IMG/VR virus record: IMGVR_UViG_3300035696_000034
Span: 1 to 64,000 of that record
DNA length: 64,000 nt
DNA from: a virus
Lineage: Duplodnaviria; Caudoviricetes
Strand: one strand, 5' to 3'
Shown piece by piece: positions 2,428-49,822 of the stretch (positions within the stretch are counted from its first letter, which is position 1; each line of letters begins with the position of its first letter). The notes below the pieces were generated by a model. The model did no database searches. It was not told the origin of the DNA and worked only from the letters and a program-made list of their open reading frames with translations. A program made the translations under genes and the position numbers.

Positions 2428-2456
2428 TTGACATTTCCCGGGAATCAGCATATATT
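2428..2456 (+). promoter_or_regulatory. Sigma70-type promoter of attenuator/tRNA array A
   Basis: TTGACA(2428-33)-17 bp-TATATT(2451-56), followed by TAGTA as at promoters B and C. Confidence 0.8.
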
Positions 2457-2557
2457 TAGTACTGAATGACAGTCCGGCTCCCTTGTTCTTTGCCAGTGGC
2501 ACTGAACCTTTAAAGGCTTACCGTTGAGCCAGCCTGGTCAAATCAACGGAAAGTTTT

Positions 2558-2638
2558 ATGATCTTTGTCGTTAACCCTAATAATAATCAGCCACAACCGC
2601 GAATCATCGATTCGTTGGGCGGGGAGATTATTCACTAG
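2558..2638 (+). CDS. Attenuator leader peptide A (MIFVVNPNNNQPQPRIIDSLGGEIIH), Asn/Pro/Gln-sensing
   Basis: Codons 6-14 AAC CCT AAT AAT AAT CAG CCA CAA CCG match the downstream Asn/Pro/Gln tRNAs; overlaps antiterminator strand. Confidence 0.8.
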   Translation: MIFVVNPNNNQPQPRIIDSLGGEIIH

Positions 2639-2702
2639 GTAACGACCCCAAGAACACCAAAAGCCCGGCGAATCTGAAAAGACTCGCTGGGCTTTTTGTT
2701 TT
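2594..2702 (+). promoter_or_regulatory. Transcription attenuator A (protector 1:2, antiterminator 2:3, terminator 3:4)
   Basis: 2594-2605 pairs with 2609-2617; 2609-2620 GATTCGTTGGGC pairs with 2663-2674 GCCCGGCGAATC (12 bp, 2 G-U). Confidence 0.8.
2659..2702 (+). terminator. Intrinsic terminator of attenuator A
   Basis: AAAAGCCCGGCGAATC-TGAAAA-GACTCGCTGGGCTTTT plus TGTTTT. Confidence 0.9.
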
Positions 2703-2747
2703 GGTATTCAGATCTTTGACATATACGATTTTGTCAGAAGCACCTTT

Positions 2748-11907: not shown

Positions 11908-11942
11908 AAGCTTTTACCTGGGTTCGAATCCCAGTAGGGAGA
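11869..11942 (+). tRNA. Amber suppressor tRNA (anticodon CTA)
   Basis: CTCCCTA/TAGGGAG acceptor, GGGCT-CTCTAAA-AGCTT, CTGGG-TTCGAAT-CCCAG; A73, no encoded CCA. Confidence 0.8.
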
Positions 11943-12020
11943 TTTGAAAACTATAAATTTTAAAATAGTCTTGGATTCTCTATTTCAAAAAAGTATATTA
12001 CTCTTGGAAGGAAAATATTT

Positions 12021-16734: not shown

Positions 16735-16763
16735 TTGCATATTTCTGCTTTCGGGTGTATATT
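16735..16763 (+). promoter_or_regulatory. Sigma70-type promoter of attenuator/tRNA array B
   Basis: TTGCAT-17 bp-TATATT followed by TAGTA. Confidence 0.75.
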
Positions 16764-16797
16764 TAGTAGGATTCAAAAAACAGGAGAGCTACTTTCA

Positions 16798-16893
16798 ATG
16801 ACTTCTCGCACAATCATGACGATCATCAGTATGGCTATCATTAGTGATTTTGATAGCATGGATGATTTCATGTCTCAGCGGGAGTTTTTTTGA
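16798..16893 (+). CDS. Attenuator leader peptide B (MTSRTIMTIISMAIISDFDSMDDFMSQREFF), Met/Ile/Ser-AGY/Asp/Phe-sensing
   Basis: SD AGGAG at 16782-86; 18 of codons 6-25 are ATG/ATY/AGY/GAT/TTY, matching array B tRNAs. Confidence 0.85.
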   Translation: MTSRTIMTIISMAIISDFDSMDDFMSQREFF

Positions 16894-16962
16894 TAAAGTA
16901 GCATAACACAGAATCAAAAAGAGGCTCCCGCCGAGAGATCGACGGAAGCCTCTTTTATTTTA
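16801..16962 (+). promoter_or_regulatory. Transcription attenuator B
   Basis: 16878-16893 GCGGGAGTTTTTTTGA pairs with 16914-16931 TCAAAAAGAGGCTCCCGC, exclusive with the terminator; leader CDS itself folds back (GCTATCA/TGATAGC, ATCATC/GATGAT, CATGA/TCATG). Confidence 0.8.
16917..16962 (+). terminator. Intrinsic terminator of attenuator B, directly before the first tRNA
   Basis: AAAAGAGGCT...AGCCTCTTTT plus ATTTTA. Confidence 0.88.
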
Positions 16963-16963
16963 T

Positions 16964-28423: not shown

Positions 28424-28690
28424 ATGTCCTCCCAGTTATCTGACTTTGAGAAAAAGACATACGTAGAACGAAGAAAAATAGAGACAGACCGTTTTGATGA
28501 GGGTATGAGACGACAGCACGATCCCAGGAATGATGGGGATTATGATCTAGATTGGGTCATAAGAAATGCTGCCGATTTCAACAGACAGTGGAAAAATTGT
28601 ATCTGTAAAAATTGCAAGAACGTTAAAGAGTGCGGTTTCAAATTAGCTACGGATTGTGCACATTTTGTTGAAGAAAAAAATAATAGTTGA
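28424..28690 (+). CDS. Hypothetical protein with C-terminal Cys cluster
   Basis: SD GAGG; CICKNCKNVKEC. Confidence 0.6.
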   Translation: MSSQLSDFEKKTYVERRKIETDRFDEGMRRQHDPRNDGDYDLDWVIRNAADFNRQWKNCICKNCKNVKECGFKLATDCAHFVEEKNNS

Positions 28691-28715
28691 CATTTCTTTG
28701 TTTTGCGTGTATATT
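28687..28715 (+). promoter_or_regulatory. Sigma70-type promoter of attenuator/tRNA array C
   Basis: TTGACA-17 bp-TATATT followed by TAGTA; TTGACATTTC shared with promoter A. Confidence 0.82.
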
Positions 28716-28743
28716 TAGTACAAAGGAAAAATGGTAAAGTCAT

Positions 28744-28869
28744 ATGGATCGTAAAATCTCTATAACCCTAACATCGTCCGCGCTCTGTTTGTGCGCAACT
28801 GCACAGACATGGGCCGGATTACGCTCACATCTGTATCTTACAGGGCGTAAAAGGCGGGGTTTAGAGTAA
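28744..28869 (+). CDS. Attenuator leader peptide C (MDRKISITLTSSALCLCATAQTWAGLRSHLYLTGRKRRGLE)
   Basis: Uses all six Leu codons, all four TCN, both Cys, three Ala, three Thr codon types, His, Tyr, Trp; 24 of codons 6-33 cognate to array C. Confidence 0.8.
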   Translation: MDRKISITLTSSALCLCATAQTWAGLRSHLYLTGRKRRGLE

Positions 28870-28930
28870 AGATACACTCTAATTGGCAAACAAAAACCCC
28901 GCCGAAGAAGTTCAGCGGGGTTTTTGTTTG
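28853..28930 (+). promoter_or_regulatory. Transcription attenuator C (antiterminator/terminator)
   Basis: GGCGGGGTTT (28853-62) is the exact complement of AAACCCCGCC (28894-903); nested TTAGAGT/ACTCTAA hairpin. Confidence 0.82.
28887..28930 (+). terminator. Intrinsic terminator of attenuator C
   Basis: CAAACAAAAACCCCGC...GCGGGGTTTTTGTTTG. Confidence 0.9.
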
Positions 28931-28985
28931 TAATAAAGTATTAATAATAAAACCACCTGTATACTATATTCCCGGGGGTTTTATT

Positions 28986-29441
28986 ATGAAGACTAAAGAA
29001 AGACTAATAGCAAGAGAACTACGTCAAAAAAAAGGAATGTCTTTACGAAATATTTGCAAAAAATTAAATATAGCTAAAAGTACGGCTCGTGCTTGGACTA
29101 AAGATATAAAGATAACTGAAAAACAAAAAGAGAACCTTAGAAAGAACGTAACAAATAGCCAGTTTACTACTAAAATTCAAGACAAAGATTTGTTTGTTTG
29201 TCCCTGTTATGTAAACAGAAAATGTATAAAAAAAAGAATTTTAAAAAAGGCCCTCATTCCATATATATGCGCGCTTTGTAGTAGACCTCCTATATGGGAA
29301 GGACAAAAACTAGTTCTTATACTAGATCATATAAACGGAAACAATCTTGATTACAGGTTAAGCAATATAAGATTTTTGTGTCCTAATTGTAATAGCCAAC
29401 AAGAAACGTTTTGTAGAAATAAAAAGGTTAAAAATGTTTGA
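28986..29441 (+). CDS. HTH plus HNH homing endonuclease
   Basis: LILDHINGNNLDYRLSNIRFLCPNCNSQ. Confidence 0.88.
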   Translation: MKTKERLIARELRQKKGMSLRNICKKLNIAKSTARAWTKDIKITEKQKENLRKNVTNSQFTTKIQDKDLFVCPCYVNRKCIKKRILKKALIPYICALCSRPPIWEGQKLVLILDHINGNNLDYRLSNIRFLCPNCNSQQETFCRNKKVKNV

Positions 29442-29790: not shown

Positions 29791-29866
29791 GACGGTGTAG
29801 CCAAGTGGTAAGGCGGCTCGTCCGCAAAACGATGCCATTGGGGTTCGACTCCCCACACCGTCTCCA
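29791..29866 (+). tRNA. trnC: tRNA-Cys(GCA)
   Basis: GACGGTG/CACCGTC, loop CCGCAAA, U73, CCA. Confidence 0.85.
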
Positions 29867-29936
29867 TATACCCCGGTATGTCGGAGAAGATCGGTTGACA
29901 GAGTATCGTTAGCTATCAACTCCGATGTGCCTTTAA

Positions 29937-30014
29937 GCCCTGGTGTTGGAATGTAGACAAGCACGCCTTAGAAGCGTGTGCGAAAGCGTGAGAGTGCGAG
30001 TCTCTCCCGGGGCA
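29937..30014 (+). tRNA. trnL: tRNA-Leu(TAG)
   Basis: GCCCTGG/CCGGGGC, CACGC-CTTAGAA-GCGTG, variable arm, A73. Confidence 0.88.
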
Positions 30015-30111
30015 TTTTTTTATCCATGTAAAAACAATTTATAATAACCTCTTAATAAAATTAGCATACTTGAAAGTACTTGTGTTTAAGTGTATGCTAT
30101 TTTAACAGGAG

Positions 30112-31008
30112 GTGGGTATGAGGAGCAAAAAGTTTGATGAAAAAAAAGAAGAGATATTACAATGGGTTAAAGAAAATAGAAGCAAAGCTTTTATATGCAA
30201 AGAAATGGATTGTAGACCCAGCACTTTGGATCACTATTTCAAAGAAATAAGTATAATTTATGCGGGAAACATGGGGTGTAAAGGCTACAGAAGACCAGCT
30301 CATAAAATACCTGTTAAAGAATATCTAGGTACAGGAAAACTTATAAGGTCTCATGCATTAAAATTAAAACTAATAGAAGAAGGAGTCAAAGAGAAGAAGT
30401 GTGAGAGGTGTGGTTTAGAAAAGTGGCTTAGCAAAGACATTCCCCTTGAATTACATCATATTAATCAAAATAGATTTGACAACAGACTAGAAAATTTAGA
30501 AATTCTCTGTTCAAATTGTCATGCTTTAGAAAACAGCAAAATAAAAAGAAGGATAGATATCTTAGAAAGATTTTGTTTGAATTGTAATAAAAAAATTGAA
30601 GTAAAAGATAGTCATTACAGAAAGTATTGTTCTAATGAGTGCATAAAAGAAGCAAAAAGAAAAATTAAAAAAATAAGGTTTTGTTTGAGTTGCAGTAATG
30701 AATTTAGTGGTAGAAATAAAAAATTTTGTTCAGAACTATGTAAAAAAGAACACGATAAAACATTAAGAAAATTTGAAATAGAAAAAGATGTATTAGAAAA
30801 GCTAGTTAACTCCGTATCAACTTCTAAAATTGCTAGAATACTAGGAGTTACAGACAATGCTGTTTCTCATAGATGTAAACGATTAGGAATAAAAAAACCT
30901 CCTAGAGGTTTTTGGGCAAAAAAGTGCTCAGGAAAATCTCCAGACATCACAAAAATAGACAAAAATTTAATAGATTACTTACAGAAGAAAGGCTATAGAA
31001 TAGATTAA
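30112..31008 (+). CDS. HNH homing endonuclease with Zn ribbons and HTH
   Basis: LELHHINQNRFDNRLENLEILCSNCHA; KPPRGFWAK tail. Confidence 0.9.
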   Translation: MGMRSKKFDEKKEEILQWVKENRSKAFICKEMDCRPSTLDHYFKEISIIYAGNMGCKGYRRPAHKIPVKEYLGTGKLIRSHALKLKLIEEGVKEKKCERCGLEKWLSKDIPLELHHINQNRFDNRLENLEILCSNCHALENSKIKRRIDILERFCLNCNKKIEVKDSHYRKYCSNECIKEAKRKIKKIRFCLSCSNEFSGRNKKFCSELCKKEHDKTLRKFEIEKDVLEKLVNSVSTSKIARILGVTDNAVSHRCKRLGIKKPPRGFWAKKCSGKSPDITKIDKNLIDYLQKKGYRID

Positions 31009-31020
31009 GATTTATTTTGT

Positions 31021-31107
31021 GCGGATGTGGCGTAACTGGAAGCCGCGCAAGCCCGAGGCGCTTGTGGGAGAAGTCCCGTGCTGATTCGAATTCAGTCATC
31101 CGCACCA
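31021..31107 (+). tRNA. trnL: tRNA-Leu(GAG)
   Basis: GCGGATG/CATCCGC, CAAGC-CCGAGGC-GCTTG, ACCA. Confidence 0.88.
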
Positions 31108-31144
31108 CTTCAATAATAGCTTCCCACAATGTTATATTATACAC

Positions 31145-31738
31145 ATGGATCTCTACATTGAAACTCGTGATCGCATGCTGGCTAAAGACAGGGATATATG
31201 GCTATGGTGCATGAACAACAAATGTGTTTACCTAAATATCGGATGTGGAGATAGCGTTTACGCAGGAGCGATAAACATAGACAAATATGTCAGAAGAAAA
31301 GATGTCTTACCTGCAGATGCCCTCTATCTTCCATTTAAAGATAACAGCGTGGATTTCATATATTCAGCCCATTCTCTGGAGCATTTGACTATAAGGGATG
31401 GAAAAAAGGCTCTAAAGGCCTGGTATAAGGCTTTAAAGCCAAACGGAAGACTTATAATAGAGTTGCCCGACTTAGAATGTATCTGTCGCAATGTCCTTAA
31501 TTCTATATATCCTAAACAGCTACAATGGAACATTTATACTCTTTTTGGATATCAAATCGATCCTCGAAATTCAGACAGTTTAGATGCCAAAGCAGATCCT
31601 GGTCAATTTCATATGAGTGGATATACCCAAACAAGTCTATGCTTGGAACTTGCTATGTTAGGATTCGAGATAAAAGAGTTCCTGCATACTGATGGTTATG
31701 GGACTCCCAACATGCATGTAGACGCCTTCAAAAGATAA
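31145..31738 (+). CDS. Class I SAM-dependent methyltransferase
   Basis: LNIGCG motif I; VDFIYSAHSLEH; LKPNGRLIIELPD. Confidence 0.85.
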   Translation: MDLYIETRDRMLAKDRDIWLWCMNNKCVYLNIGCGDSVYAGAINIDKYVRRKDVLPADALYLPFKDNSVDFIYSAHSLEHLTIRDGKKALKAWYKALKPNGRLIIELPDLECICRNVLNSIYPKQLQWNIYTLFGYQIDPRNSDSLDAKADPGQFHMSGYTQTSLCLELAMLGFEIKEFLHTDGYGTPNMHVDAFKR

Positions 31739-31742
31739 TCCT

Positions 31743-31826
31743 GCGGGTATGGGGAAATTGGCAGACCCAGTAGGCCCAGATCCTACCGAGAGTAATCTCA
31801 TTTCAGTTCAAGTCTGAATACCCGCA
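31743..31826 (+). tRNA. trnL: tRNA-Leu(CAG)
   Basis: GCGGGTA/TACCCGC, GTAGG-CCCAGAT-CCTAC. Confidence 0.85.
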
Positions 31827-31846
31827 TTTCCTACATATCAATTTAT

Positions 31847-31932
31847 TGTGTGGTGGCAGAGCGGCCAATTGCACCTGACTGTAGATCAGACGCCTGTAAT
31901 GGGCTACGGAGGTTCAAATCCTCCCCACACAA
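31847..31932 (+). tRNA. trnY: tRNA-Tyr(GTA)
   Basis: TGTGTGG/CCACACA, loop CTGTAGA, long variable arm. Confidence 0.88.
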
Positions 31933-31955
31933 CTCTTTTATAATCAACTAATTAT

Positions 31956-32030
31956 GGTGGCATTAGTGTAGTGGTAGCACAAGTGGCTGTGGCCCACTTA
32001 GAGCGAGTTCGATTCTCGTATGTCACCCCA
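31956..32030 (+). tRNA. trnH: tRNA-His(GTG)
   Basis: G-1:C73 pair, AGTGG-CTGTGGC-CCACT, CCA. Confidence 0.92.
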
Positions 32031-32058
32031 ATTTTAACTTTACAGAAAGGATAATCCC

Positions 32059-32390
32059 ATGCGAAAGGCAAGCCTACCTTAACGGTTACAGGTGAAACCG
32101 AAGATGGAAAATTAGTTGTATCAGGTGTCTTTGAACTCATGTCCTCTGTACTCGGAGTCCCCTTAGAGTTTCTCCTCGAGATGTTAAAAGAGAGAAACAT
32201 TCTAGTAAGTTGGACTCACTTCTATAACTCCTCTGTAGAACATCTCTGGAGTTATAAGACAACAAGGGAGAGAGTGAGTACAGCTGTGTTTGAGGTTTAC
32301 GGCCCGGAGTACAGAGATGAGGTGATGAAGAGGTTGGATTATTATCATAGGAGCGTATCAGACAGGTCTCCAAAACCTGATTTACTGTAA
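32059..32390 (+). CDS. Hypothetical protein requiring a -1 frameshift near its start
   Basis: SD AAAGGA plus ATG32059 in one frame; long start-less open frame from 32055 in the -1 frame; junction ATG CGA AAG. Confidence 0.5.
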
Positions 32391-32430
32391 TTGGGTGAAA
32401 ATGGGGGTTCGACTCCCTCCGCTCCTGCCA
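32349..32430 (+). tRNA. trnW: tRNA-Trp(CCA) lacking a D-arm, with long variable arm
   Basis: AGGAGCG/CGCTCCT, CAGGT-CTCCAAA-ACCTG, T-loop TTCGACT, GCCA; only 7 nt between acceptor and anticodon stems. Confidence 0.75.
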
Positions 32431-32467
32431 CCCATAAATTATCTGTTAATAGGTTTCGAATCTTAAT

Positions 32468-32543
32468 GCCGGTGTATCTCAATTAGTAGAGGGCCTCACT
32501 TGTAATGAGGAAGTTGGGGATGCAAGTTCCTCCACCGGCCCCA
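32468..32543 (+). tRNA. trnT: tRNA-Thr(TGT)
   Basis: GCCGGTG/CACCGGC, CCTCA-CTTGTAA-TGAGG, CCA. Confidence 0.9.
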
Positions 32544-32550
32544 TTTTTTC

Positions 32551-32624
32551 GCTTCTGTAGTTTAAAGGTAGAATGCGCCCTCGGTAAGGGTGAGGAGCTT
32601 TCGGTTCGATTCCGGCCAGCGGCT
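32551..32624 (+). tRNA. trnT: tRNA-Thr(GGT), degenerate
   Basis: CGCCC-TCGGTAA-GGGTG (C33); mismatches in acceptor and T stems. Confidence 0.6.
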
Positions 32625-32695
32625 TTTTTCTTTAGGAATCAATTGTCTAGATAGTATATTATTATAGACCCAAACCTCATTGAAAGGAGCACATA

Positions 32696-32719
32696 ATGGC
32701 ATCCACCACCATGCGGTAG
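32696..32719 (+). promoter_or_regulatory. uORF MASTTMR* upstream of ORF 32745
   Basis: SD AAAGGAG; ends in TAG inside hairpin GCGGTA/TACCGC; its 5' end can pair with GGATCCAT just before ATG32745. Confidence 0.4.
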
Positions 32720-32744
32720 CGAGTACCGCTAGAAGGGATCCATT

Positions 32745-33017
32745 ATGTCTCATCCGAAGGATCGTCATGAACGCTTCCTCATCGGCAAAAAGCTTGGGGA
32801 AAAACGAGGGTACAGGTATTGGAATGGGTTTAAATTCATCCGGGACGAAGAGCAGAGGAAAGAAGATCTCAGAATAGCCTCTTTTAAAAGACGAGATACC
32901 ACCAAACTTTGTTCTTGCATGATGTGTGGAAATCCTCGCAGGATGTCCTCAAAAAAAGATGTTAAGCTTACTATGCAAGAAAGAAAACTTCCAGATTGGA
33001 AGAAGGAGGCAGAATGA
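32745..33017 (+). CDS. Small basic phage protein (CSCxxCGNPRR-type)
   Basis: KRRDTTKLCSCMMCGNPRR. Confidence 0.7.
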   Translation: MSHPKDRHERFLIGKKLGEKRGYRYWNGFKFIRDEEQRKEDLRIASFKRRDTTKLCSCMMCGNPRRMSSKKDVKLTMQERKLPDWKKEAE

Positions 33018-33496
33018 CTCGAGCTGCAGCAGGTCTTAAAAAACATTATTGGAATTGCGTAACAAAAGTATGGATGGCTGGTAATACTAAACTATCCGCA
33101 GAGATGGTTTGTGCAGTTACCGGAACTCCTGATAAAAAATTGAATTTTAATAAAGTACGGATGCTACTGAAAGAAGCAGAAGACTATATAAAAAATCTTT
33201 AACTAAAGGAGAACATATGCCTCAATTATCCGGAGACCTAAAGTCATATAGTGGAATAACTTTGATGGAACGAACAAAAAGTATGCTTGAAAAAGCCACA
33301 AAGCTAGGATTTACAATTCTCCCTTCCGTTTACAGAGATAAAACAACCAGTGAAAAGATCTATAATGTCTTCAAATGCTACAACGGTAAAGAAGAAGCCT
33401 ATGCTCTTATAGTCAAAGACTGGATAAAAGGATTCCCGCGAATCGATTCTAAAGGGAATATCAAAGCAAAGTGATTTTATACGGGAAAGGTTTCTC

Positions 33497-34036
33497 ATGT
33501 ACGTAATGGTTGATATCGAAGCGGATGGTCCGATCCCAGGGGATTATTCGATGATCTCGTTCGGGGCGGTTTTGATCGACAGATCACCTTTAGCTATATC
33601 GACTAACAAGGAAAAATTCGATACTACCTTTTTTGGGAAGCTCCATCCCATATCTGATCAATTCGTTCCGGAAGCTCTGGCAGTTTCTGGTTATACCAGA
33701 GAAGAGACTATGACATTCCCCGATCCCCTCAAGGTTGTGCAGAATTTTGATCTATGGCTGCACGAGCATAATCGGGAGCAGCCAAAGTTTATTTCCGATA
33801 ATAACGGATTCGACTGGATGTTTATGTGTTGGTATTTTTGGCATTTTCTCCATAAGAATCCATTCGGTCACAGTTCTACAAATTTAGGGTCATTTTATAA
33901 GGGCATCGAGAGGAGTTTTAAAAGAAATTTTAAACATCTTCGGAAGACCAGGCACTCGCATAATCCTATGGAAGATTCAATCGGTAATGCAGAGGCATTT
34001 TGCACGATTATTCAGAACAATCATGTCGAGTATTAA
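33497..34036 (+). CDS. DEDDh 3'-5' exoribonuclease (Rv2179c-like)
   Basis: MVDIEADGP, NGFDWMF, HNPMEDS. Confidence 0.85.
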   Translation: MYVMVDIEADGPIPGDYSMISFGAVLIDRSPLAISTNKEKFDTTFFGKLHPISDQFVPEALAVSGYTREETMTFPDPLKVVQNFDLWLHEHNREQPKFISDNNGFDWMFMCWYFWHFLHKNPFGHSSTNLGSFYKGIERSFKRNFKHLRKTRHSHNPMEDSIGNAEAFCTIIQNNHVEY

Positions 34037-34108
34037 GGGGCTGTAGATTAGTGGGAAATCGGGACACCGGCAGTGTTCAGAGCGTCAGTTCGACCCTGAC
34101 CAGCTCCA
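34037..34108 (+). tRNA. trnA: tRNA-Ala(GGC)
   Basis: GGGGCTG/CAGCTCC with G3:U70, loop CCGGCAG. Confidence 0.85.
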
Positions 34109-34774
34109 CTTTTAAGGATCATTGTGAATAAAGAAGAGTTCTACGAATACATGGACGATCAGAATAACTATGAGAGGGTCGTCCTGGGAATCGACATAGC
34201 AGTTATGCATGTTGGATTTGAAGCTGTCTACGATGCGAGCATACAGTGCGGCAGAGCTAAAGATGTTGAGGCTATGCAGTATATCATAAATAACCATATA
34301 AACACAAACATGCTTGCAAAAATATCGGGGCTGCATTGAAATACCCAAAGAACTTTATCAACTATTGGGACGAAGGTCAGAAAATCAGGCATCTGAACTG
34401 GAATCTAAAAAGAAACAGCACGCAGATTGTTAAAAGGCTGGGCATTGTTAGATGGTATAAAAAAGGATTCTGGAAGAGATATTTCAGGAAAAAGATGACG
34501 AGAGAGGCACTATGGGAATGATAAAAGTCGGTGATTACTTTAAGACCAAAACTGGAGCTTTAGGTGTCGTTGTAATCCTCATAGGAGGAGGCACTCCTCG
34601 GGAACTCTACGGGGACATGGCTCCAGGAGCCGAGAGCGGCTATGAGTATTTCACACTGTACGTTGACAAAAATCTAAGATACGGAAGATCGAAGGTACAG
34701 CTGATGCCCCTCAATAGATATGCTATCGGGGATGTCACAAAGATCAGCAAACGAGAATACAATCAATTGTTGAG

Positions 34775-35044
34775 GTGAATATGCTCCTTCCATCATCAAC
34801 AACTGTAATGCGGATACCGTCTTACTTTCTTAGGGTAAAAAAGACTGGTATGATTAGTATAGCTTATGAATGTCATCCAGATGGCATCCACCTTCACTTA
34901 GAGAGAGATTTACACGCATACACCTTGGAAGATCTGGAACCTGCAACTGAAGAAGAATATCAAGATCAAATAAGACGCATTAAAAATACTCACACTGAAA
35001 AAGAATACAACGAACTTTTAGAAAATTTTAAAAAAAGACTGTAA
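34775..35044 (+). CDS. Hypothetical protein (paralog of 36489-36743)
   Basis: MLLP...IPSY.L.VKKTG...DGIHL.LERDL shared with 36489. Confidence 0.7.
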   Translation: MNMLLPSSTTVMRIPSYFLRVKKTGMISIAYECHPDGIHLHLERDLHAYTLEDLEPATEEEYQDQIRRIKNTHTEKEYNELLENFKKRL

Positions 35045-35442
35045 CTCAGCCGGAATAGAAATGAACCTCTACAAATTTGGTGTTTTATTGTTTTGGATTG
35101 GTGTAGTATTAGGCATCGCGGTGATTATCGGGAGCATATGGTGGCCACAATATACAATAACAACTTTAGGTGGAATTGTCGTATGCATAGCAACATCCTC
35201 AATGGTTTCTGGAGTTTTTGTACTAATAATGTTAGAGGGATGATTAAATGGCACTAACAGCAGGACTCGCAAAAGTGATGGGTTGGAAGCTAGATCACCC
35301 CAACGGTCTTGATGACACGCCTTGGGTGATGCCTGTAGAATACAGAAAAGTCCCGACATTAGCAGATGTTATTAAACATGGCTTTGAGTTCTCAAGAAAA
35401 ATTGAGCGGGATCTTAAAAAATTGAAGAGAAAGAAATAGTTT

Positions 35443-35468
35443 GGGGCTGTAGCACAGTTGGGAATGTG
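35443..35468 (+). pseudogene. 5' remnant of a tRNA-Ala gene
   Basis: GGGGCTGTAGCACAGTTGGGAATGTG (acceptor 5' strand plus D-arm), then breaks off before the DUF4145 gene. Confidence 0.65.
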
Positions 35469-35497
35469 TTTATAGGTATATATAAAGGAGTTTTTGT

Positions 35498-36091
35498 ATG
35501 AGCATGATTTCAATTGATTCAGAGTGGATTTGTGGAAACTCAATTCCAAGTGAATCATTCGTTTGTGGTTTTTGTAATGTAAGAATTTCTTCGGCAAAAG
35601 GATTCAAATTGTTTTCAAAACAAATACGCGGTCATTCAAGATCTAAAACAAGAGGCGGTATATACATCTGCGATAATTGCAACGGCCCAACTTTTATTTC
35701 AGAAGCCGGGCATCAATATCCATTACCTGCTTTTGGGAGTTCTGTTAAAAATGTACCCCAAAACATAAACACACTTTATGAAGAAGCAAGAAACGGCACC
35801 AAAGCAAAAAATTATACGAGCTCAGTTTTATTGTGTCGAAAAATATTAATGCACATTGCAGTAGAGAAGGGTGCTGAACCAGGTTTACCCTTTATTGGGT
35901 ATGTGAATTTTCTAGAAGAAAATCATTACGTTCCGCCTGATAGTAGAAGTTGGGTTGATCGTATCAGAGTAAGAAGTAATGAGGCTAACCATGAAATTGA
36001 AATTATGACTCAAACAGACGCAGAGAATCTAATTACTTTTATTGAAATCATACTAAGGTTTCTGTATGAAACACCTAGTTTGATTAGATGA
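35498..36091 (+). CDS. DUF4145-domain protein
   Basis: CGFC...CDNCNGPT; LYEEAR...SSVLLCRKILM...IRVRSNEANHE. Confidence 0.8.
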   Translation: MSMISIDSEWICGNSIPSESFVCGFCNVRISSAKGFKLFSKQIRGHSRSKTRGGIYICDNCNGPTFISEAGHQYPLPAFGSSVKNVPQNINTLYEEARNGTKAKNYTSSVLLCRKILMHIAVEKGAEPGLPFIGYVNFLEENHYVPPDSRSWVDRIRVRSNEANHEIEIMTQTDAENLITFIEIILRFLYETPSLIR

Positions 36092-36097
36092 AAATTT

Positions 36098-36168
36098 GGG
36101 GCTATCGTCCAGTGGGAAGACTCTTGCCTTGCACGCAAGAAACGGCAGTTCGAATCTGCCTAGCTCCA
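36098..36168 (+). tRNA. trnA: tRNA-Ala(TGC)
   Basis: GGGGCTA/TAGCTCC with G3:U70, CTTGC-CTTGCAC-GCAAG. Confidence 0.92.
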
Positions 36169-36195
36169 TTTAAATATTTATCAGAAAGGAACCTT

Positions 36196-36471
36196 ATGGG
36201 ATCTAAATTTACCGTACCTCTTGAAAGAATTCCCTGGCCGGAAGAAATCAGCCGATGGGTTATTGCAATGATGCTTAAGAACAAAACGGAAAAAGTAGAA
36301 ATGACCTATAGGGAAGTTGATGAAGCTTCTAAAAATTATGAGTTAGTTGTAGCGGACAAACTTCTTCCAGATTCAGGTCTAAATGAAAAAACGGATCTTG
36401 GCAAAGCCGAAGTAATATTTTCATTAAGAAAAGTGGAAAAAGAATTAAGAAAACCTTTTTGGGAAGTTTAG
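36196..36471 (+). CDS. Hypothetical protein
   Basis: SD AAAGGA; the track ORF start lies inside tRNA-Ala and was corrected. Confidence 0.55.
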   Translation: MGSKFTVPLERIPWPEEISRWVIAMMLKNKTEKVEMTYREVDEASKNYELVVADKLLPDSGLNEKTDLGKAEVIFSLRKVEKELRKPFWEV

Positions 36472-36488
36472 CTTAAAAGGAGAGAACC

Positions 36489-36743
36489 ATGCTTCTTCCA
36501 GGATCATTAATGACTGTAATGCAAATACCATCTTATTATCTTAAGGTAAAAAAGACTGGTAGGATTGGTATAGCTGATGAACCCCACCACGACGGTATCC
36601 ATCTTCGTTTAGAAAGAGATTTATATTGGTATTCGCTGAATGAACTAGAACCTTCAACTGAAGAAACTTATCTAGACCAAATAAAACTCATCAAAAGTGC
36701 GCGTACAGATGAAGAGTATAAAGAAGTTCTTAAGGGGATATAG
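36489..36743 (+). CDS. Hypothetical protein (paralog of 34775-35044)
   Basis: See paralog; SD AAGGAG. Confidence 0.7.
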   Translation: MLLPGSLMTVMQIPSYYLKVKKTGRIGIADEPHHDGIHLRLERDLYWYSLNELEPSTEETYLDQIKLIKSARTDEEYKEVLKGI

Positions 36744-36791
36744 CTCAGCTGGGAGAGCACTACGTTCGCATCGTTCCCGATCATCTCCACC
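36734..36791 (+). pseudogene. tRNA-Ala(CGC) pseudogene with variable/T-arm deletion
   Basis: GGGGATATAGCTCAGCTGGGAGAGCACTACG-TTCGCAT-CGT then jumps to TCCCGATCATCTCCACCA; 58 nt. Confidence 0.8.
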
Positions 36792-36811
36792 AAAATCGCA
36801 AAGGAATATTT

Positions 36812-37423
36812 ATGAAATCAAATTTTCCCACAGTTCCTGATTTAATTGCAAACGCAAAAGCTATTAAGAAGTTTAAAAGAGTGATACACGAAAAATTAAA
36901 TGTAGGTGAGATGCCGATATATGATATAAAAGCAGGTGACAAAGCTTTAAGTTACGATCCTTATAATCAAGGTTGGTATTTTGCCCCAACACTTAATGCT
37001 GAAATTGGTGACGATAATAACAGAGACGAGCGTTATACTAATACAGACCGAAGATGCTACACGTGTGGGTCTTTTGCAATTGATGATCTTCAGGCATTTG
37101 AAGATTGTTGTAAAAATCTTGAGGATTGCAGTGGTAGAGAATTATTAATGATTACGTGGGGCGACAGATATGACGAATTTGCAATGATAATTAAAGACAT
37201 ATATGAGAACAACCCGAAATATATCCTTACATCTTTAGAGCAGCGCTACAAAATAGCAGTCAATGCTTTAATCAATATTGTTAAAGGTGGATGTTTTTAT
37301 CCCAACAAGAAAGAAGCTAAAACAGCCCTACAAAGACTTATTTATAAAACAGCGGATGAAGATAAGTCTATAACTCTTGGTCCTGATTTTAAAAAAGAAC
37401 TCATGAAAATATTAGCAGAATAA
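36812..37423 (+). CDS. Hypothetical protein
   Basis: 203-aa ORF, SD AAGGA. Confidence 0.6.
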   Translation: MKSNFPTVPDLIANAKAIKKFKRVIHEKLNVGEMPIYDIKAGDKALSYDPYNQGWYFAPTLNAEIGDDNNRDERYTNTDRRCYTCGSFAIDDLQAFEDCCKNLEDCSGRELLMITWGDRYDEFAMIIKDIYENNPKYILTSLEQRYKIAVNALINIVKGGCFYPNKKEAKTALQRLIYKTADEDKSITLGPDFKKELMKILAE

Positions 37424-38108
37424 AATAGGAATTATATATTTTGCTACCCAGGAGATAAATCTATGAAAAATTTATTATTTTTCATCAAGCATCCTTTATT
37501 CAGTATAAAACAACGAATACTTTTCATATGGTATTGGAAAATAAATGGTAGAAAAACCTATGAAGAACTTAAAAAACATAAATAAAATATTCTTACGCAT
37601 AATCGGCTGGTGTCCATACTGCCGTACGATTTTTCATTATCCCAAAAAAAGGCGTATGAATACCCAATATGCCAAAGAAGAATCCAATTGGGTTACTTGT
37701 TGCAAACCTCAATTTGATGAAATCCAAGAATACTGGAAAGAACGTTGGGCTGATTACTGGTCAGGTTGTCTATAGAAGGACAGTCTTATGAAATCTTTAA
37801 TCATGCGAGAACATGATGCTATGAAAAATAAAATGGGTCTTCGCTATTATAAAGATCCAGAAGGGGGCTATTCGAATTCCCCTATAACGCCGCACTCAGA
37901 GGTAAGCCTGGGCTATGATTGGACTATCACGGTTGAATCTTTGGGCGTGAAACACAAATATAAACTTACCAGTAAATCTGGTATGATATCTACCGCTGAA
38001 ATAATTGCAGTCCTTTGTAAAAATACTGATTTAAAAATATTATTTACAGCGGAAGATAAGGCAAAATTCGAGCGTGCTTGGAAAAGAAAGTTTGGAAAAT
38101 AATTTTTA

Positions 38109-38218
38109 GCTCGGGTGGCGAAATTGGTATACGCTGGGGTCTTAACGGGTAGAAGATTTTATTTCTATCCTTTAAACCCTTGGGGAAACCCATGAGGATT
38201 CGAGTTCCTCCCTGAGCA
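38109..38218 (+). tRNA. trnL: tRNA-Leu(TAA) with a 28-nt hairpin insertion in the anticodon loop
   Basis: GCTCGGG/CCTGAGC, GGGGT-CTTAA[38146-38173]AA-ACCCT, Leu-type D and variable arms. Confidence 0.75.
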
Positions 38219-38828
38219 CTTTAAAATTTTTTATTTAAAGGTATAAAATGTTAAGCCAAAAATTTAAAGACCAGCTTGCTGCTGTTGCTAAAAAATATAG
38301 AAAAAAGCGTATAGATTGTTGTGCAGCATGCTCCCTTGTTAAAGATAAGCAACATTGTAAATACTGTATCATGGAAAAAATCGATATGTTTTGCGGTCGT
38401 CCAGTTGTCAAAGTATACGAACCCGCTCATTCTGTCTGGATGGTTCGTGAAACTCCTATTACTTATGAAGATGTGCTTAGGCTCTATTCTGCACTAGAAC
38501 TTTCAAAAGACATTTCTGATATAATTTATGATGATGATTGGGACAACGGCTATAAAAGCTGTTAAACATTCTACAGGTAAAAACATTAAATATGTCATAT
38601 GAACTTGGTCATTGCAATAAATGTGGTTGGAAGGGTGACATAGACAAAGCCGACCAAAGGACTGAGGATGAGCTTTTATATCTCTACTGTCCAAAAGGTT
38701 GCGACGAAGAAGTAGCCCCTCGGAGACCTGTGAATGCTTCCAAGGATTATTTCGTGAACATGTTTCAGAATCTATTTAAAGAGAAAAAAGACGGATATGA
38801 ATTTGATCCTGATGGGAAAAAATAATAC

Positions 38829-38922
38829 GGCGAGATGCCAGAGCCTGGTTTATCGGGCTAGTCTTGAAAACTAGTGTGGAGTTAAAAGGCCACCGCAGGT
38901 TCAAATCCTGCTCTCGCCGCCA
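38829..38922 (+). tRNA. trnS: tRNA-Ser(TGA)
   Basis: GGCGAGA/TCTCGCC, CTAGT-CTTGAAA-ACTAG, GCCA. Confidence 0.94.
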
Positions 38923-38930
38923 ATATGAAG

Positions 38931-39018
38931 GGAAGAGTGTCCGAGTGGTTTAAGGAGCACGCCTCGAAAGCGTGTGTGCAGAAATGTACCCTGGGTTCAA
39001 ATCCCAGCTCTTCCGCCA
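38931..39018 (+). tRNA. trnS: tRNA-Ser(CGA)
   Basis: GGAAGAG/CTCTTCC, CACGC-CTCGAAA-GCGTG, GCCA. Confidence 0.95.
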
Positions 39019-39035
39019 TCAAAGAAAAGTCCTTT

Positions 39036-39185
39036 ATGCCGAACGAATTAAAACGGTGTCCTTGTTGTGGTGGTGAAGCCCAGCGTTCATCCGATGGAGG
39101 ATGTAGAAATTTTACTATTTTTTGTACCTCATGTGGATTAGACATCGTCGATTATGGCTCCCGTGAATATGGAAAAGAGTATTGA
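39036..39185 (+). CDS. Lar-like Zn-ribbon protein, probably truncated by the adjacent element
   Basis: ELKRCPCCGGEA...CTSCG. Confidence 0.55.
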   Translation: MPNELKRCPCCGGEAQRSSDGGCRNFTIFCTSCGLDIVDYGSREYGKEY

Positions 39186-40365
39186 TTATATTTGAGCTGA
39201 AGAGTTTATTATCATAGATTTGTAAAAATTATGAAACTCATCCGTTCTTCCAAATGTAGCTTAAAATTCGCTACAACCTCCAAACTCTCTAAGCTTCGTA
39301 AGGTGCTTTCTGAATGTGGCCGAGTCTGTAACATCTTTATTGATTACTTTTGGAAAAGTGGCACTCCCTCTAAATCTGAACTCTTAAAAGAAATAGTAGA
39401 CATCCCACAAGGCACTTGGCTGACCGCTCGGCTTCGTAAAATAGCCGCCCGGGAAGCTATAGACATGATTAATGCTGTGAGAGAGAGGTGGAAGGATAAA
39501 CCTTGGAAGATCTCTATGCCCATACATAAGGGCAAGAGAGCTTACGTCTCCTGTACCATAGCGGATCTTCAGGAAAAAGGTGGTTCTAAGGAATTTGATG
39601 CCTGGCTTCATTTGTCCTCTGTCGGGAAAGAGACAATCCTGGACCTTCCTATTAAATTTCATAAACATTATAATAAATTAGCTCTTCAAGGAAAACGCTT
39701 GAATTCCTACATCCTTACAAATAAATATGTCCAGTTTTCATTTGAAATAGATGTAGGTGAGAAGAAAAATGGCGCTAACGCTATAGGCATAGATACTGGG
39801 ATCAAAGCCCTTGCCTCTTTAAATAACGGCGCTCAATTCGGTTTAGATATTGAAACCCTTATCGAGCGTATCAAACGCTGTCAGCATGGCTCTAATGGTC
39901 AGAAACAAGCCCGGAAAGCCTTTAAACAGAGGATAGATGAAGCCGTCAAAGAGGTAGTTAAACATTTTGAGCATATAGATTTGGTCGTGGTAGAAGCATT
40001 AAAAAACATGAATTACAAGAGTAAACTCAAACGTCGCTTGAGTAAAAATATGCGGCGTTCTATCGGCACTTGGGCGTATAGGTACTGGTTAAAAAGGCTG
40101 GAGCAAGCCTGTGAGACTAACCGTGTTAGTTTTCGCACCGTGGCTCCTTTTTATACCAGCCAAACATGTCCGAGCTGTGGTCATGTCGATAGGGGGAATA
40201 GAGTAGGACAAATGTTCCGGTGCCTAGTATGTGGTCACACAGGTAACGCAGATATTATTGCAGCCAGGAACATATTGACTCGATTTCTTACGGGACTCTA
40301 CGGTGCCCGTTACAAACCATACGAAACTATATTTAATATTTCATAGTTTCAGAGGAACGGTGCTC
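39186..40365 (+). mobile_element. TnpB-only (IS1341-like) IS200/IS605 element; ends approximate
   Basis: tnpB without tnpA; TTGAT at 39182-86 resembles a TAM. Confidence 0.6.
39231..40346 (+). CDS. tnpB: RNA-guided endonuclease TnpB
   Basis: IGIDTG (D), VVVEAL (E), TSQTCPSCG...CLVCG..GNADIIAARNI (D); triad intact. Confidence 0.92.
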   Translation: MKLIRSSKCSLKFATTSKLSKLRKVLSECGRVCNIFIDYFWKSGTPSKSELLKEIVDIPQGTWLTARLRKIAAREAIDMINAVRERWKDKPWKISMPIHKGKRAYVSCTIADLQEKGGSKEFDAWLHLSSVGKETILDLPIKFHKHYNKLALQGKRLNSYILTNKYVQFSFEIDVGEKKNGANAIGIDTGIKALASLNNGAQFGLDIETLIERIKRCQHGSNGQKQARKAFKQRIDEAVKEVVKHFEHIDLVVVEALKNMNYKSKLKRRLSKNMRRSIGTWAYRYWLKRLEQACETNRVSFRTVAPFYTSQTCPSCGHVDRGNRVGQMFRCLVCGHTGNADIIAARNILTRFLTGLYGARYKPYETIFNIS

Positions 40366-40434
40366 CTTCTAATGATTGACTAACCAAAACCGAATAATTA
40401 ACTAATAAGTTTCTCCTAAAAAAGAGGAGAAACC

Positions 40435-40716
40435 ATGTATAAACAGCAGGTCACAATACTGAACAAAAATGGGTTGCACGCTCGTCCAGCGGCTGAGATA
40501 GTACAGGAAGCCTCAAAATACGAGTCTGAGATAAAAATCATTAACATAAAAGAAAGTATTACAGTCAGTGCAAAAGTAGTTATGGAGCTGTTGTTACTCG
40601 GGGCTTTTTGTGGGACGGAGCTTCTTATAGAGGCGACAGGCAAAGATGAAGAGGAAGCCGTCAAAAACATAGCCAACAGAATAGCGGGATTCTCATCAAT
40701 GGATGAAGGAGATTAA
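40435..40716 (+). CDS. ptsH: HPr-family phosphocarrier protein (Ser46 position is Val)
   Basis: NGLHARPAA with His15; SAKVVMELL aligns with canonical AKS motif; GKDEEEAV. Confidence 0.92.
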   Translation: MYKQQVTILNKNGLHARPAAEIVQEASKYESEIKIINIKESITVSAKVVMELLLLGAFCGTELLIEATGKDEEEAVKNIANRIAGFSSMDEGD

Positions 40717-40926
40717 TATGAACAAACAATCTTTAGAAGAAAAGGTAAACAATATCCTTCGTAATCATACAATCAGCGTCCTTAATAACAATGTTGTTAA
40801 TGTCCCTAAAAAAGGACCGGTGTCGGAAAGTTTTATCAATGAGATTAAAAAAAGCAGAGAGAACATCTTAGAAGAAGAAAAACGTACTTCCAAGAAAATA
40901 CTAGCACTTCTAAAGACAAGGCAATC

Positions 40927-41784
40927 ATGAACTCTGTTAAAACTAAAAAGAGCTCTTACACGGACAATTCGACCGAAGAGAAGATCCTGACTCAATATAT
41001 GGAAGATGTTGGGAGATACAAACCCTTAAGTTCGGTAGAAGAGCACGAATTGGCAAAGCGTATACGCAAAGGGGACAAGAAAGCAGCGGAGAAATTAATC
41101 AGGGCGAATCTTACTTTTGTGATAACGGTAGTCAACAATTACAAAAATCAAGGATTGCCGCTTTTGGATCTTATTAATATCGGTAACATGGGACTTATAC
41201 GAGCAGCCAAAAAATTTGATGAAAGAAAAAACTATAAATTCATATCCTATGCAGTGTGGTGGATACGTCAGGCTGTCTTAGGAGCCCTAGCGGATCAGTC
41301 TAGAGCTCTGAGGATCCCTATGCATTGTGTTTCTCAGATCGTGAGTATGAGAAAAATAAAAGAAAAGATTGAGAGAGAAAAACAAAGAGAAGCTTATCCA
41401 GAAGAGATTGAGGCAGCACTAGCTCTTAAGCGCCCTACAGCCTTGAATAAATTGATATCGATAGATACTCCTCATTTATCTCTCGATACCTCCTCTTTTG
41501 ATAACGGAGCGCCTTTGGTGGAGCTTATGGAAGGTGAGAGCGACTCTCCGGAAGATTTAGTTTTAAAATTGTCAGAAAAGGAAGATATTAAGAGAAAGCT
41601 AGGTTGTCTGACAACGATGGAAAAAAAAGTTATCTGTGAATACTACGGTATAGATAAAGAGGACGCCAAGACTCTTGCAGATATTGGTAAAAAGTTTAGA
41701 CTCACGAGAGAGCGCGTGCGTCAGATTAGAGAGCAAGCTCTAAAAAAGCTACGAGCCTGTTACAAAAACAGTTGCAGGGAGTAA
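40927..41784 (+). CDS. Sigma70-family RNA polymerase sigma factor (RpoD/RpoS-like)
   Basis: LIRANLTFVI, DLINIGNMGLIRAAKKFD...FISYAVWWIRQAV, LTRERVRQIREQALKKL. Confidence 0.95.
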   Translation: MNSVKTKKSSYTDNSTEEKILTQYMEDVGRYKPLSSVEEHELAKRIRKGDKKAAEKLIRANLTFVITVVNNYKNQGLPLLDLINIGNMGLIRAAKKFDERKNYKFISYAVWWIRQAVLGALADQSRALRIPMHCVSQIVSMRKIKEKIEREKQREAYPEEIEAALALKRPTALNKLISIDTPHLSLDTSSFDNGAPLVELMEGESDSPEDLVLKLSEKEDIKRKLGCLTTMEKKVICEYYGIDKEDAKTLADIGKKFRLTRERVRQIREQALKKLRACYKNSCRE

Positions 41785-42010
41785 ACATAATATGGAAGAC
41801 TCTAATGATTTTAGTGTCCCCGGTATGATGAGGGGTGATTTCTCTGAAGAATTCCTAAAAAAGCTCGGTTTTAAAAAAGCAGTCATAGACGAAAGCTGTT
41901 TATTCGATGGCAAAGACATCCACAGAGTAATGGCGCTTCCTGATGGTCCAGTCGGTTTGAAGTTTTTCGAAAGATACATAAAGAATCAAGAAGAGCATCC
42001 AGAAATATAA

Positions 42011-42093
42011 GCCCAGGTGGTGAAATTGGTATACACGCAGGTTTCAAAAACCTGTGGGAAACCATGAGCGTTCAACTCGCTCCCTGGGCACCA
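42011..42093 (+). tRNA. trnL: tRNA-Leu(CAA)
   Basis: GCCCAGG/CCTGGGC, CAGGT-TTCAAAA-ACCTG, ACCA. Confidence 0.94.
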
Positions 42094-42310
42094 CTTTAAA
42101 CTGAAGAGTAAAAACATGCTCAAAATTATTAACCGTCCACTCCCACAGGCTTGCTGTAGCTCGTGTGGCGGTAAAATTGGTGACCCCTTTCACGATGATA
42201 ACTGCCTAGCGTATCAGAGTAGCCAGCACCCTATTAGAGAAATTTTATTTTCATTTTTACGTGTAAGTATATTAAGTTCAGTACTAACATTTATTACAGT
42301 GTTGTTAAAC

Positions 42311-42400
42311 GGAGGCGTACGCTAACTGGTAAGCGACAACATTGGAAATGTTGCGTCCTTTAAAATGGACTTGGGCGTTCGAGCCGCTCCGCCTCCGCCA
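42311..42400 (+). tRNA. trnS: tRNA-Ser(GGA)
   Basis: GGAGGCG/CGCCTCC, CAACA-TTGGAAA-TGTTG, GCCA. Confidence 0.94.
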
Positions 42401-42603: not shown

Positions 42604-43239
42604 GTGGTCCACGTGAGTGTCATAGTCTTAACCGCCACTGGATATTTCTGGGATGAAGTGTCTGACTTGAGAAGGGTCCTTAGGTGGATGCTGAACGACA
42701 AAATTGAAGTACTGAGGTACGACGAGAATCATGTCTATCAGAGTGCGGGAGATTTTGGCCGTGAAGGTACCGTTTTGAGGATTAAGATACCTCTTGTCGT
42801 GCGTCTTCTGAAATTCGCTGGATGTAAAATAAAGGATGAAATAATAGCCTATTCCAGTGATGCTGTATACGATAGGGACAGGGACATTTGTCAATATCTT
42901 CACGAATATGTCCTTGACGAAGATGGAAATGCTACTCCTTGTGCTCCTTACAAGTATAGGTGCACTGAAGACGAAAAGTCAATTGACCATATTATCCCTA
43001 TATCTAAGGGAGGTAAGACTGATTTCTTGAACTGTGTTACAGCATGTAAATACTGTAATGAAATTTTGAAGAGGAATCATCTCCCTAAAGAAGCTGGTCT
43101 GAAATTAATTCGTCAGCCTTTCATACCAACCAGGAAGGTTGGAGAGTTATGGATGCCGAAGTTCACCTATAATCCTCATAAGATAGCTCACAAGGCTTTC
43201 TTTGAGCTTATGGGCTGGGAGTTCAGTCACAAGGCATAG
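42604..43239 (+). CDS. HNH endonuclease (McrA-like)
   Basis: YDRDRDICQY...SIDHIIPISKGGKTDFLNCVTACKYCN. Confidence 0.9.
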   Translation: MVHVSVIVLTATGYFWDEVSDLRRVLRWMLNDKIEVLRYDENHVYQSAGDFGREGTVLRIKIPLVVRLLKFAGCKIKDEIIAYSSDAVYDRDRDICQYLHEYVLDEDGNATPCAPYKYRCTEDEKSIDHIIPISKGGKTDFLNCVTACKYCNEILKRNHLPKEAGLKLIRQPFIPTRKVGELWMPKFTYNPHKIAHKAFFELMGWEFSHKA

Positions 43240-49681: not shown

Positions 49682-49822
49682 ATGAACAGAACACAGATAT
49701 ATCTAACGGACAAAGAACAAAAAAATCTTAAAAAAGAAGCCGATGAAATAGGCATATCAAAAGCCGAGCTTGTAAGAAGAATCCTTGATAAGCACATAGA
49801 AGAAAAGAAAAAATGTATATAA
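49682..49822 (+). CDS. Ribbon-helix-helix (CopG-like) protein, 46 aa, not in ORF track
   Basis: MNRTQIYLTDKEQKNLKKEADEIGISKAELVRRILDKHI; SD AAGGAG; ATACAT/ATGTAT inverted repeat upstream. Confidence 0.85.
   Translation: MNRTQIYLTDKEQKNLKKEADEIGISKAELVRRILDKHIEEKKKCI

Follow-up and report, generated by a model that had tools for sequence, protein, structure and literature searches.

The region from 28687 to 28933 of this phage DNA is probably a leader-peptide attenuator that gates transcription from a sigma-70-type promoter into a downstream array of tRNA genes (array C), with the leader acting as an OR-gate on decoding speed, as judged from the sequence and from computed RNA folds. Such an OR-gate had been proposed in the initial annotation, and it is supported by the coverage of the array's anticodons, by the concentration of cognate codons in one zone of the leader, and by the repetition of the design in two further units of the same contig (units A and B) and in two other phages. 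The window analysed is the 64-kb first part of an IMG/VR record with a total length of 72.5 kb; the G+C content is 38.8%. As the completeness of the record is estimated at 29%, the phage is probably a jumbo phage.

The promoter of unit C (28687..28720, + strand) has a -35 box TTGACA (28687-92), a 17-nt spacer and a -10 box TATATT (28710-15), the latter being part of the extended -10 motif TATATTTAGTA (28710-28720). It is a near-consensus site of the sigma-70 type (11 of 12 matches) and the top-scoring one within 10 kb; transcription is likely to start near 28722. A short ORF lies between this promoter and the first structural gene, as in known attenuators: leader C (28744..28869, + strand) starts 29 nt past the -10 box and extends from ATG28744 to TAA28869, i.e., 41 sense codons followed by TAA. 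ATG28744 is the earliest in-frame start, since an in-frame stop (28735-37) precedes it. Two features around the start codon count against the attenuator model. First, the sole clear Shine-Dalgarno core, AAGGA, is located 16 nt away from ATG28744. Second, a 7-codon out-of-frame uORF (28731..28754, + strand) overlaps the leader start; it is present in the sequence just as the initial annotation described it, and its ATG28731 has a Shine-Dalgarno duplex of -5.6 kcal/mol at a spacing of just 2 nt. This uORF may feed ribosomes to ATG28744, or else it is irrelevant. The ribosome binding site of leader C had already been flagged as weak, and weak it is, but this is not a strong objection because Shine-Dalgarno signals are weak throughout the phage: their median strength is -4.5 kcal/mol, and values of -4 kcal/mol or lower are found for 53% of long ORFs vs. 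27% of random positions.

The codons that had been listed for the 41-codon leader are exactly those in the sequence. Their diversity is high also when put against suitable backgrounds, with 34 of 40 codons being distinct compared to a mean of 26.1 (sd 2.6) in windows of real genes of the phage (P=0.0006), and with P=0.003 under synonymous resampling. All six Leu codons are present (P=0.04), and Ser is encoded four times, once by each TCN codon (P=0.011). It is this sampling of each isoacceptor about once that suggests an OR-gate.

The content of the leader is matched by that of array C (29791..42400, + strand; ARAGORN and Infernal). ARAGORN finds 31 tRNA genes, all on the + strand, and assigns to array C the tRNAs Cys, Leu(TAG, GAG, CAG, AAG, CAA), Tyr, His, Thr(TGT), Ala(GGC, TGC), and Ser(TGA, CGA, GGA), interspersed with HNH, methyltransferase, TnpB, and sigma-factor genes. 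With cognate codons scored by strict wobble rules, 14 of these 14 anticodons are covered by leader C (P about 0.0013), and 20 of its 40 codons are cognate (P=0.0013). Two leader codons, TGG and TTA, at first seemed to be without a tRNA in the ARAGORN set. They match two tRNA genes that ARAGORN had mis-called or missed. One is a Trp(CCA)-like gene (32349-32427, + strand), called Ser(ACT) at 32349-32430 with a poor fold by ARAGORN, but read as Trp(CCA) because Infernal aligns an anticodon arm at 32363-79 with the loop CUCCAAA. The other, at 38109-38218 (+ strand), was recovered by Infernal with permissive filters (RF00005, 37.6 bits); its variable arm is long, its anticodon loop consists of CUUAA, an insertion of ~28 nt, and AA, and we read it as an interrupted Leu(UAA). 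When Trp is added the coverage becomes 15 of 15, a value reached at only 6 places in the 72-kb contig, and with the interrupted Leu(UAA), seen only by Infernal, it becomes 16 of 16, most anticodons being sampled once each; the cognate codons then number 23 of 40 (P=2e-4). Both genes are odd members of the array and may be non-functional, which counts against the model. In the Trp(CCA)-like gene the D-arm is only ~4 nt long and there is a variable insertion of 20 nt, so that it may be an unusual or defective tRNA. The insertion in the Leu(UAA)-like gene is too short for a group I intron; genes for an RNA ligase and a polynucleotide kinase-phosphatase (PNKP) are located nearby (see below).

The cognate codons are not evenly spread. 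Codons 6–33, from here on the sensing zone, hold 22 cognate codons out of 28, vs. 1 of 12 outside it; the six codons of the zone without a strict cognate tRNA in array C are ATA, ACC, ACT, CAG, GGA, and CGC, and they count against the model. Frame 0 is the best of the six frames for cognate codons, and four of the other five contain stops. Leader C is in this way enriched in codons tied to the product that it would regulate, as attenuator leaders are. The enrichment in C alone is only moderate, as 50% cognate codons are reached by 5.7% of the small ORFs in the contig, and the case therefore rests on coverage, diversity, position, and context jointly.

Downstream of the leader lies a strong intrinsic terminator (28888..28933, + strand) with a 5′ arm at 28892-28906 (segment 3), a 3′ arm at 28911-28924 (segment 4), and a T-rich tail. 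The last codons of the leader, 34–41, form the antiterminator strand. Here GGCGGGGTTT (28853-62, codons 37–40) is perfectly complementary over 10 nt to AAACCCCGCC (28894-28903) of the terminator 5′ arm, which confirms what the initial annotation had reported; the duplex has an energy of -20.8 kcal/mol, and this was equalled in 2 of 2000 dinucleotide shuffles. This strand belongs to segment 2 (28853..28866, + strand), of which 28856-66 can instead pair with segment 1 (28758..28769, + strand), an anti-antiterminator found in the minimum free energy (MFE) fold. In computed folds the helices 1:2, 2:3 (antiterminator), and 3:4 (terminator) are mutually exclusive, so that unit C has, as attenuators do, a terminator and a competing antiterminator ahead of the structural genes. 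Two internal hairpins (28776-28819 and 28820-28849; 28776..28849, + strand), present in both the MFE and the centroid fold, are located inside the sensing zone and may serve as pause or spacing elements.

Once the whole hairpin has been transcribed, equilibrium folding gives the terminator a probability of 0.99. In the complete transcript the terminator always forms at equilibrium, whatever the position of the ribosome; this is expected of any attenuator and means that complete transcripts cannot discriminate between ribosome positions. Truncated transcripts were therefore folded with a ribosome footprint of 28 nt kept single-stranded, in a test that is thermodynamic only. In a transcript cut at 28870, i.e., before segment 3 has emerged, the 1:2 helix has a probability of 0.97, and it is melted by a ribosome with its P-site at codons 4–12. 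In a transcript ending at 28904 the antiterminator has a probability of 0.88 for P-site codons 1–32 and is 5.8 kcal/mol better than the 1:2 state, but it is blocked from P-site codon 34 through the stop codon. The boundary of the region that permits the antiterminator coincides with the last cognate codon, codon 33. The model has two weak points. If the ribosome stalls at codon 14 or beyond, segment 1 lies free behind it and could re-pair with segment 2. Furthermore, the truncated transcript favours the antiterminator at equilibrium also without a ribosome, and the 'off' state must consequently come from kinetics or from a ribosome that sits on the stop codon.

Leader translation and regulated read-through at unit C, as suggested by this arrangement, would work as follows. 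An undelayed ribosome would reach codons 34–42 and cover segment 2, allowing the terminator to form and leaving the tRNA genes off. Slow decoding of any one cognate codon would stall the ribosome upstream of segment 2, which could then pair with the emerging 5′ arm of the terminator, and the polymerase would read into the HNH gene that follows the terminator (see below) and into array C. The fresh tRNAs would speed up decoding and close the gate again, giving negative feedback. Leader C should react most strongly when one tRNA species alone is severely depleted.

It is also conceivable, although we consider it unlikely, that unit C encodes an untranslated, highly structured RNA (a small RNA or a 5′ leader) whose promoter and terminator serve it alone, and that the 41-codon frame is a by-product of G+C-rich stems. 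The 211-nt transcript has a very stable fold (-81.8 kcal/mol, z-score -7.5), the unit is self-contained from promoter to terminator over about 210 nt, the Shine-Dalgarno sequence of leader C is poorly placed, and the remaining frames of the G+C-rich stretch also have 12–15 cognate codons of 40. Against this reading, anticodon coverage and codon diversity each have P about 1e-3, the cognate codons end where masking of segment 2 by the ribosome starts, and units A and B as well as those of Salicola phage SCTP-2 (see below) have unmistakably matched peptides in the same layout. No Rfam family fits unit C either: all matches are driven by the terminator and remain under the gathering score. The His_leader, Leu_leader, Thr_leader, and Trp_leader models gave 13–31 bits against cut-offs of 41–55, in alignments that rest on the terminator, and with 24–31 bits against cut-offs of 49–55 for the His, Leu, and Thr models there is no membership by sequence in these families. 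No T-box match was found in unit C with Rfam. A type I toxin-like small hydrophobic peptide was considered and set aside, as neither leader A nor leader B is hydrophobic and the weak matches to ohsC correspond to the terminator. The same applies to a retron or a tRNA-like RNA, with no reverse transcriptase nearby and no tRNA called in 28700-28950 by ARAGORN or Infernal.

The design of unit C is found twice more on the contig. Just three copies of the motif TATATTTAGTA are present in its 72.5 kb (at 2451, 16758, and 28710), and each copy is the -10 region of a unit consisting of promoter, leader, terminator, and tRNA genes. Unit A (2429..2703, + strand) combines the promoter motif with a terminator and a 26-codon leader that contains the run NPNNNQPQP, and heads an array of Pro x3, Asn x2, and Gln x2. 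Unit B (16735..16963, + strand) has the promoter motif, a 31-codon leader rich in Met, Ile, Ser(AGY), Asp, and Phe codons, and a terminator, and heads an array of Met x3, Ile, Phe, Ser(GCT), and Asp x2. Cognate codons make up 8 of 25 codons in leader A (P=0.0015) and 20 of 30 in leader B (P=7e-9), and both leaders cover five out of five anticodons. Each of the three leaders fits its own array best and not the other two. The antiterminator strand of unit B is likewise located in the last leader codons, and a scan of ribosome positions follows the same logic as in unit C, the antiterminator being allowed at codons 1–23 and blocked from codon 24. Leader A ends at a TAG (2636-2638), and a tRNA whose anticodon is CUA is encoded within the territory of array A (11868-11943), i.e., an amber suppressor, which ARAGORN labels 'Pyl'; read-through of the TAG would end at TGA 2675-77, in the terminator hairpin just past its 5′ arm.

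A further reading, very improbable in our view, is that the hairpin of unit C is an ordinary terminator of upstream transcripts, next to a chance or unrelated small ORF (e.g., one for a hydrophobic peptide), and that the tRNAs are transcribed from other promoters. The middle of peptide C is indeed hydrophobic, the phage has its own sigma factor, and a weak promoter-like site follows the terminator. This site (28941-28970, 9 of 12 matches) is the second promoter by which, according to the initial annotation, control might be bypassed. It turned out to be no better than chance, as equally good sites are just as common in shuffled sequence, and no promoter or terminator above shuffle level was found on the + strand between 28.9 and 50.7 kb. 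An ordinary terminator is also difficult to reconcile with a strong dedicated promoter directly upstream of the ORF, with a 10-nt antiterminator inside the last codons (P about 0.001), and with a design that is present three times with a unique common promoter motif.

The distance between terminator and tRNA genes counts against the attenuator model. In units A and B roughly 0–50 nt separate the terminator hairpin from the first tRNA, whereas the first tRNA of unit C is located 860 nt downstream with an HNH homing-endonuclease gene in between (28986..29441, + strand; phrog_10822, E=1e-25; Pfam HNH). This gene is probably a mobile insertion into unit C. Two more HNH homing-endonuclease genes (30112-31008 and 42604-43239; three in all) and genes for TnpB-like transposases (39231-40346 and 49813-51042) are located within or after array C.

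Similar units are present in other phages. Salicola phage SCTP-2 and LR745208.1 were chosen for comparison as the nearest deposited phages by their RNA ligase (about 48% identity). In SCTP-2 (MF360958.1; cultured, 440 kb), four units of promoter, Shine-Dalgarno sequence, leader, terminator, and array are found at about 296.5–317.6 kb, with positions near 296.5, 303.7, 308.7, and 316.2 kb. The fraction of cognate codons is 0.40–0.48 for a leader's own array vs. 0.03–0.17 for the other arrays, and the true pairing of leaders and arrays is the best of 24 permutations. The leader ahead of Ser(GCT) has five AGY codons, the one ahead of Ser(TGA) and Thr(TGT) has TCN codons and eight ACA codons, and the one ahead of Leu(TAG, GAG) has CTN codons only. 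The two leaders that were checked in the GenBank record, ORFs 351 and 364, are annotated as hypothetical proteins. The record lists no tRNA features at 303.5–309.3 kb. Leader 1 is very rich in Asn codons, although its array has no tRNA-Asn according to ARAGORN; an unassigned tRNA match of 119 nt by Infernal is located at 298729-298847.

In LR745208.1 (uncultured, 485 kb) the arrays are grouped strictly by amino acid (Thr x3, Leu x5, Pro/Ala, Tyr/Cys/His, Arg/Gly, and Glu/Asp). Every one of them comes after a promoter and a short ORF with matching codons, and out of 40320 permutations the true pairing comes out best. The hairpins ahead of these tRNAs are without clear U-tract terminators, and termination may therefore work differently there. 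Five of the candidate leader ORFs of this phage (140–203 kb) start with Met-Asn, and two doubtful candidates, one ahead of Lys/Val/Arg and one ahead of Ile/Phe/Gln, continue into the tRNAs. When the units with clear terminators are taken together (three from this contig and four from SCTP-2), the best partner of the terminator 5′ arm is found close to the leader end in 7 of 7. In six of these the complement ends within two codons of the stop (last 4–7 sense codons), and in unit A it ends five codons before the leader stop. Units A and B and those of SCTP-2 and LR745208.1 share with unit C the promoter, the matched leader, the antiterminator strand near the leader end, and the tRNA-array layout, but there is no detectable sequence homology and the likeness is one of architecture and logic. 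Unit C is the broadest of them, with 16 anticodons for eight amino acids and near-single sampling.

This comparison bears on a different question, which is what a translated attenuator would report. Leader C could in principle signal general translation capacity or the timing of infection, with any ribosome following the polymerase being sufficient, rather than the supply of particular tRNAs. At equilibrium the antiterminator forms whenever codons 34–42 are free of ribosomes, and codons present in single copy should give weak stalls under mild limitation, both of which would suit such a general signal. We nevertheless find this improbable, as the match is at the level of isoacceptors: AGY codons go with Ser(GCT) arrays and TCN codons with Ser(NGA) arrays, here as well as in SCTP-2, Leu codons of the CTN or TTR type track the local Leu tRNAs, and the three leaders of this contig each match their own array only.

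Relatives of unit C itself were not found. Searches with blastn for relatives of the stretch among deposited phages gave no match. No relative was revealed when viral contigs were scanned with two proteins as anchors, namely the 88-aa ORF located upstream and the exonuclease, or by exact-word scans with the antiterminator and with tRNA-Cys. A metagenome scan gave a single match, located in a bacterial contig of 65% G+C, which was rejected as chance. Among 97 viral contigs with the promoter pattern none was related, and three had tRNAs downstream, without a comparable leader. Almost no tRNAs were found at 80 viral loci with a similar sigma factor (at most 43% identity), and none of the other DNA windows compared had a look-alike of the unit C stretch.

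In the leaders of the ilvGMEDA, thr, his, trp, leu, and phe operons a short codon-rich ORF is combined with 1:2, 2:3, and 3:4 helices and a terminator, and the position of the ribosome picks the fold. Unit C resembles the multivalent enterobacterial attenuators, such as ilvGMEDA and thr, in that a promoter is followed by an ORF whose codons relate to what is regulated, by alternative helices, and by an intrinsic terminator. It differs in its target, which is phage tRNA genes and not biosynthetic enzymes, and in sampling about 20 codons once each where the leaders of the ilvGMEDA and thr type have runs of one to three kinds. The pheST leader (pheM) and the T-box are known cases in which the supply of one given charged tRNA determines the expression of part of the translation machinery. 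In pheM a synthetase is controlled by means of a Phe run, whereas unit C would control tRNA genes; T-boxes bind uncharged tRNA directly and without translation, unlike the leader translation proposed here. Phage tRNA genes are usually viewed as constitutive helpers in codon usage or as spares against tRNA-cleaving defences, and to our knowledge little is known about how their expression is controlled. The trn operon of Anabaena sp. PCC 7120 is a long array of accessory tRNA genes, normally silent, that is induced upon impairment of translation (PMC8421152, PMC10272220); it is controlled by the repressor TrcR, and leaders, attenuation, and stalling go unmentioned in the paper.

Our full-text literature search gave no paper in which leader peptides or attenuation are linked to tRNA arrays or to the tRNA genes of phages, and leader-controlled tRNA arrays are mentioned neither in the XacN1 paper nor in a review on jumbo phages. 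We thus found no published account of trp-operon-style control of tRNA genes; the mechanism is known, and phage tRNA genes would be its new target. If the attenuator reading is correct, tRNA supply would regulate itself array by array, and attenuation would be extended from amino-acid supply to the tRNA pool. The single sampling in leader C suggests an OR-gate that reports the loss of any isoacceptor, which bears on the arms race involving anticodon nucleases. As the same design is found in a cultured phage, SCTP-2, the idea is directly testable, and the element could serve as a compact and designable sensor of decoding speed for chosen codons.

It is tempting to speculate, and only tentatively, that leader C acts as a sentinel for attack by anticodon nucleases of the host or by other defences that deplete tRNAs, the cleavage of any one tRNA turning on the replacements. 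Genes for an RNA ligase (PF09414, 45838-46890) and, directly after it, a PNKP (PF25109 and a kinase domain, 46897-47790) are located downstream of array C on the same strand and form the classic T4-type tRNA-repair pair. No terminator is evident between array C and these two genes, and they would possibly be switched on too if leader C is such a sentinel. Units A, B, and C would then together provide an amino-acid-sorted and self-correcting tRNA supply shared by a lineage of huge phages. That the signal is loss of tRNA and not amino-acid starvation, as proposed in the initial annotation, is suggested only by the context, i.e., regulated tRNA genes with RNA ligase and PNKP downstream. The contig also encodes a CCA-adding enzyme (53996-55762, - strand), and its presence along with the repair genes fits circumstantially with a phage facing tRNA-targeting defences. 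The repair genes are flanked by a gene for a fused protein that is cytidylyltransferase-like and dephospho-CoA-kinase-like (43450-44619) and by a phosphoribosyltransferase gene (47791-48297).

Two further genes are located inside array C, encoding an RNase T-like exonuclease (33497-34036) and the phage's sigma-70-family factor (40927-41784). The nearest cellular relatives of the latter (~47% identity) are the RpoD proteins of Chitinispirillia and Fibrobacterota, which is a possible hint at the host. The closest relative of all, with 76% identity, is found on a contig of 3.4 kb.
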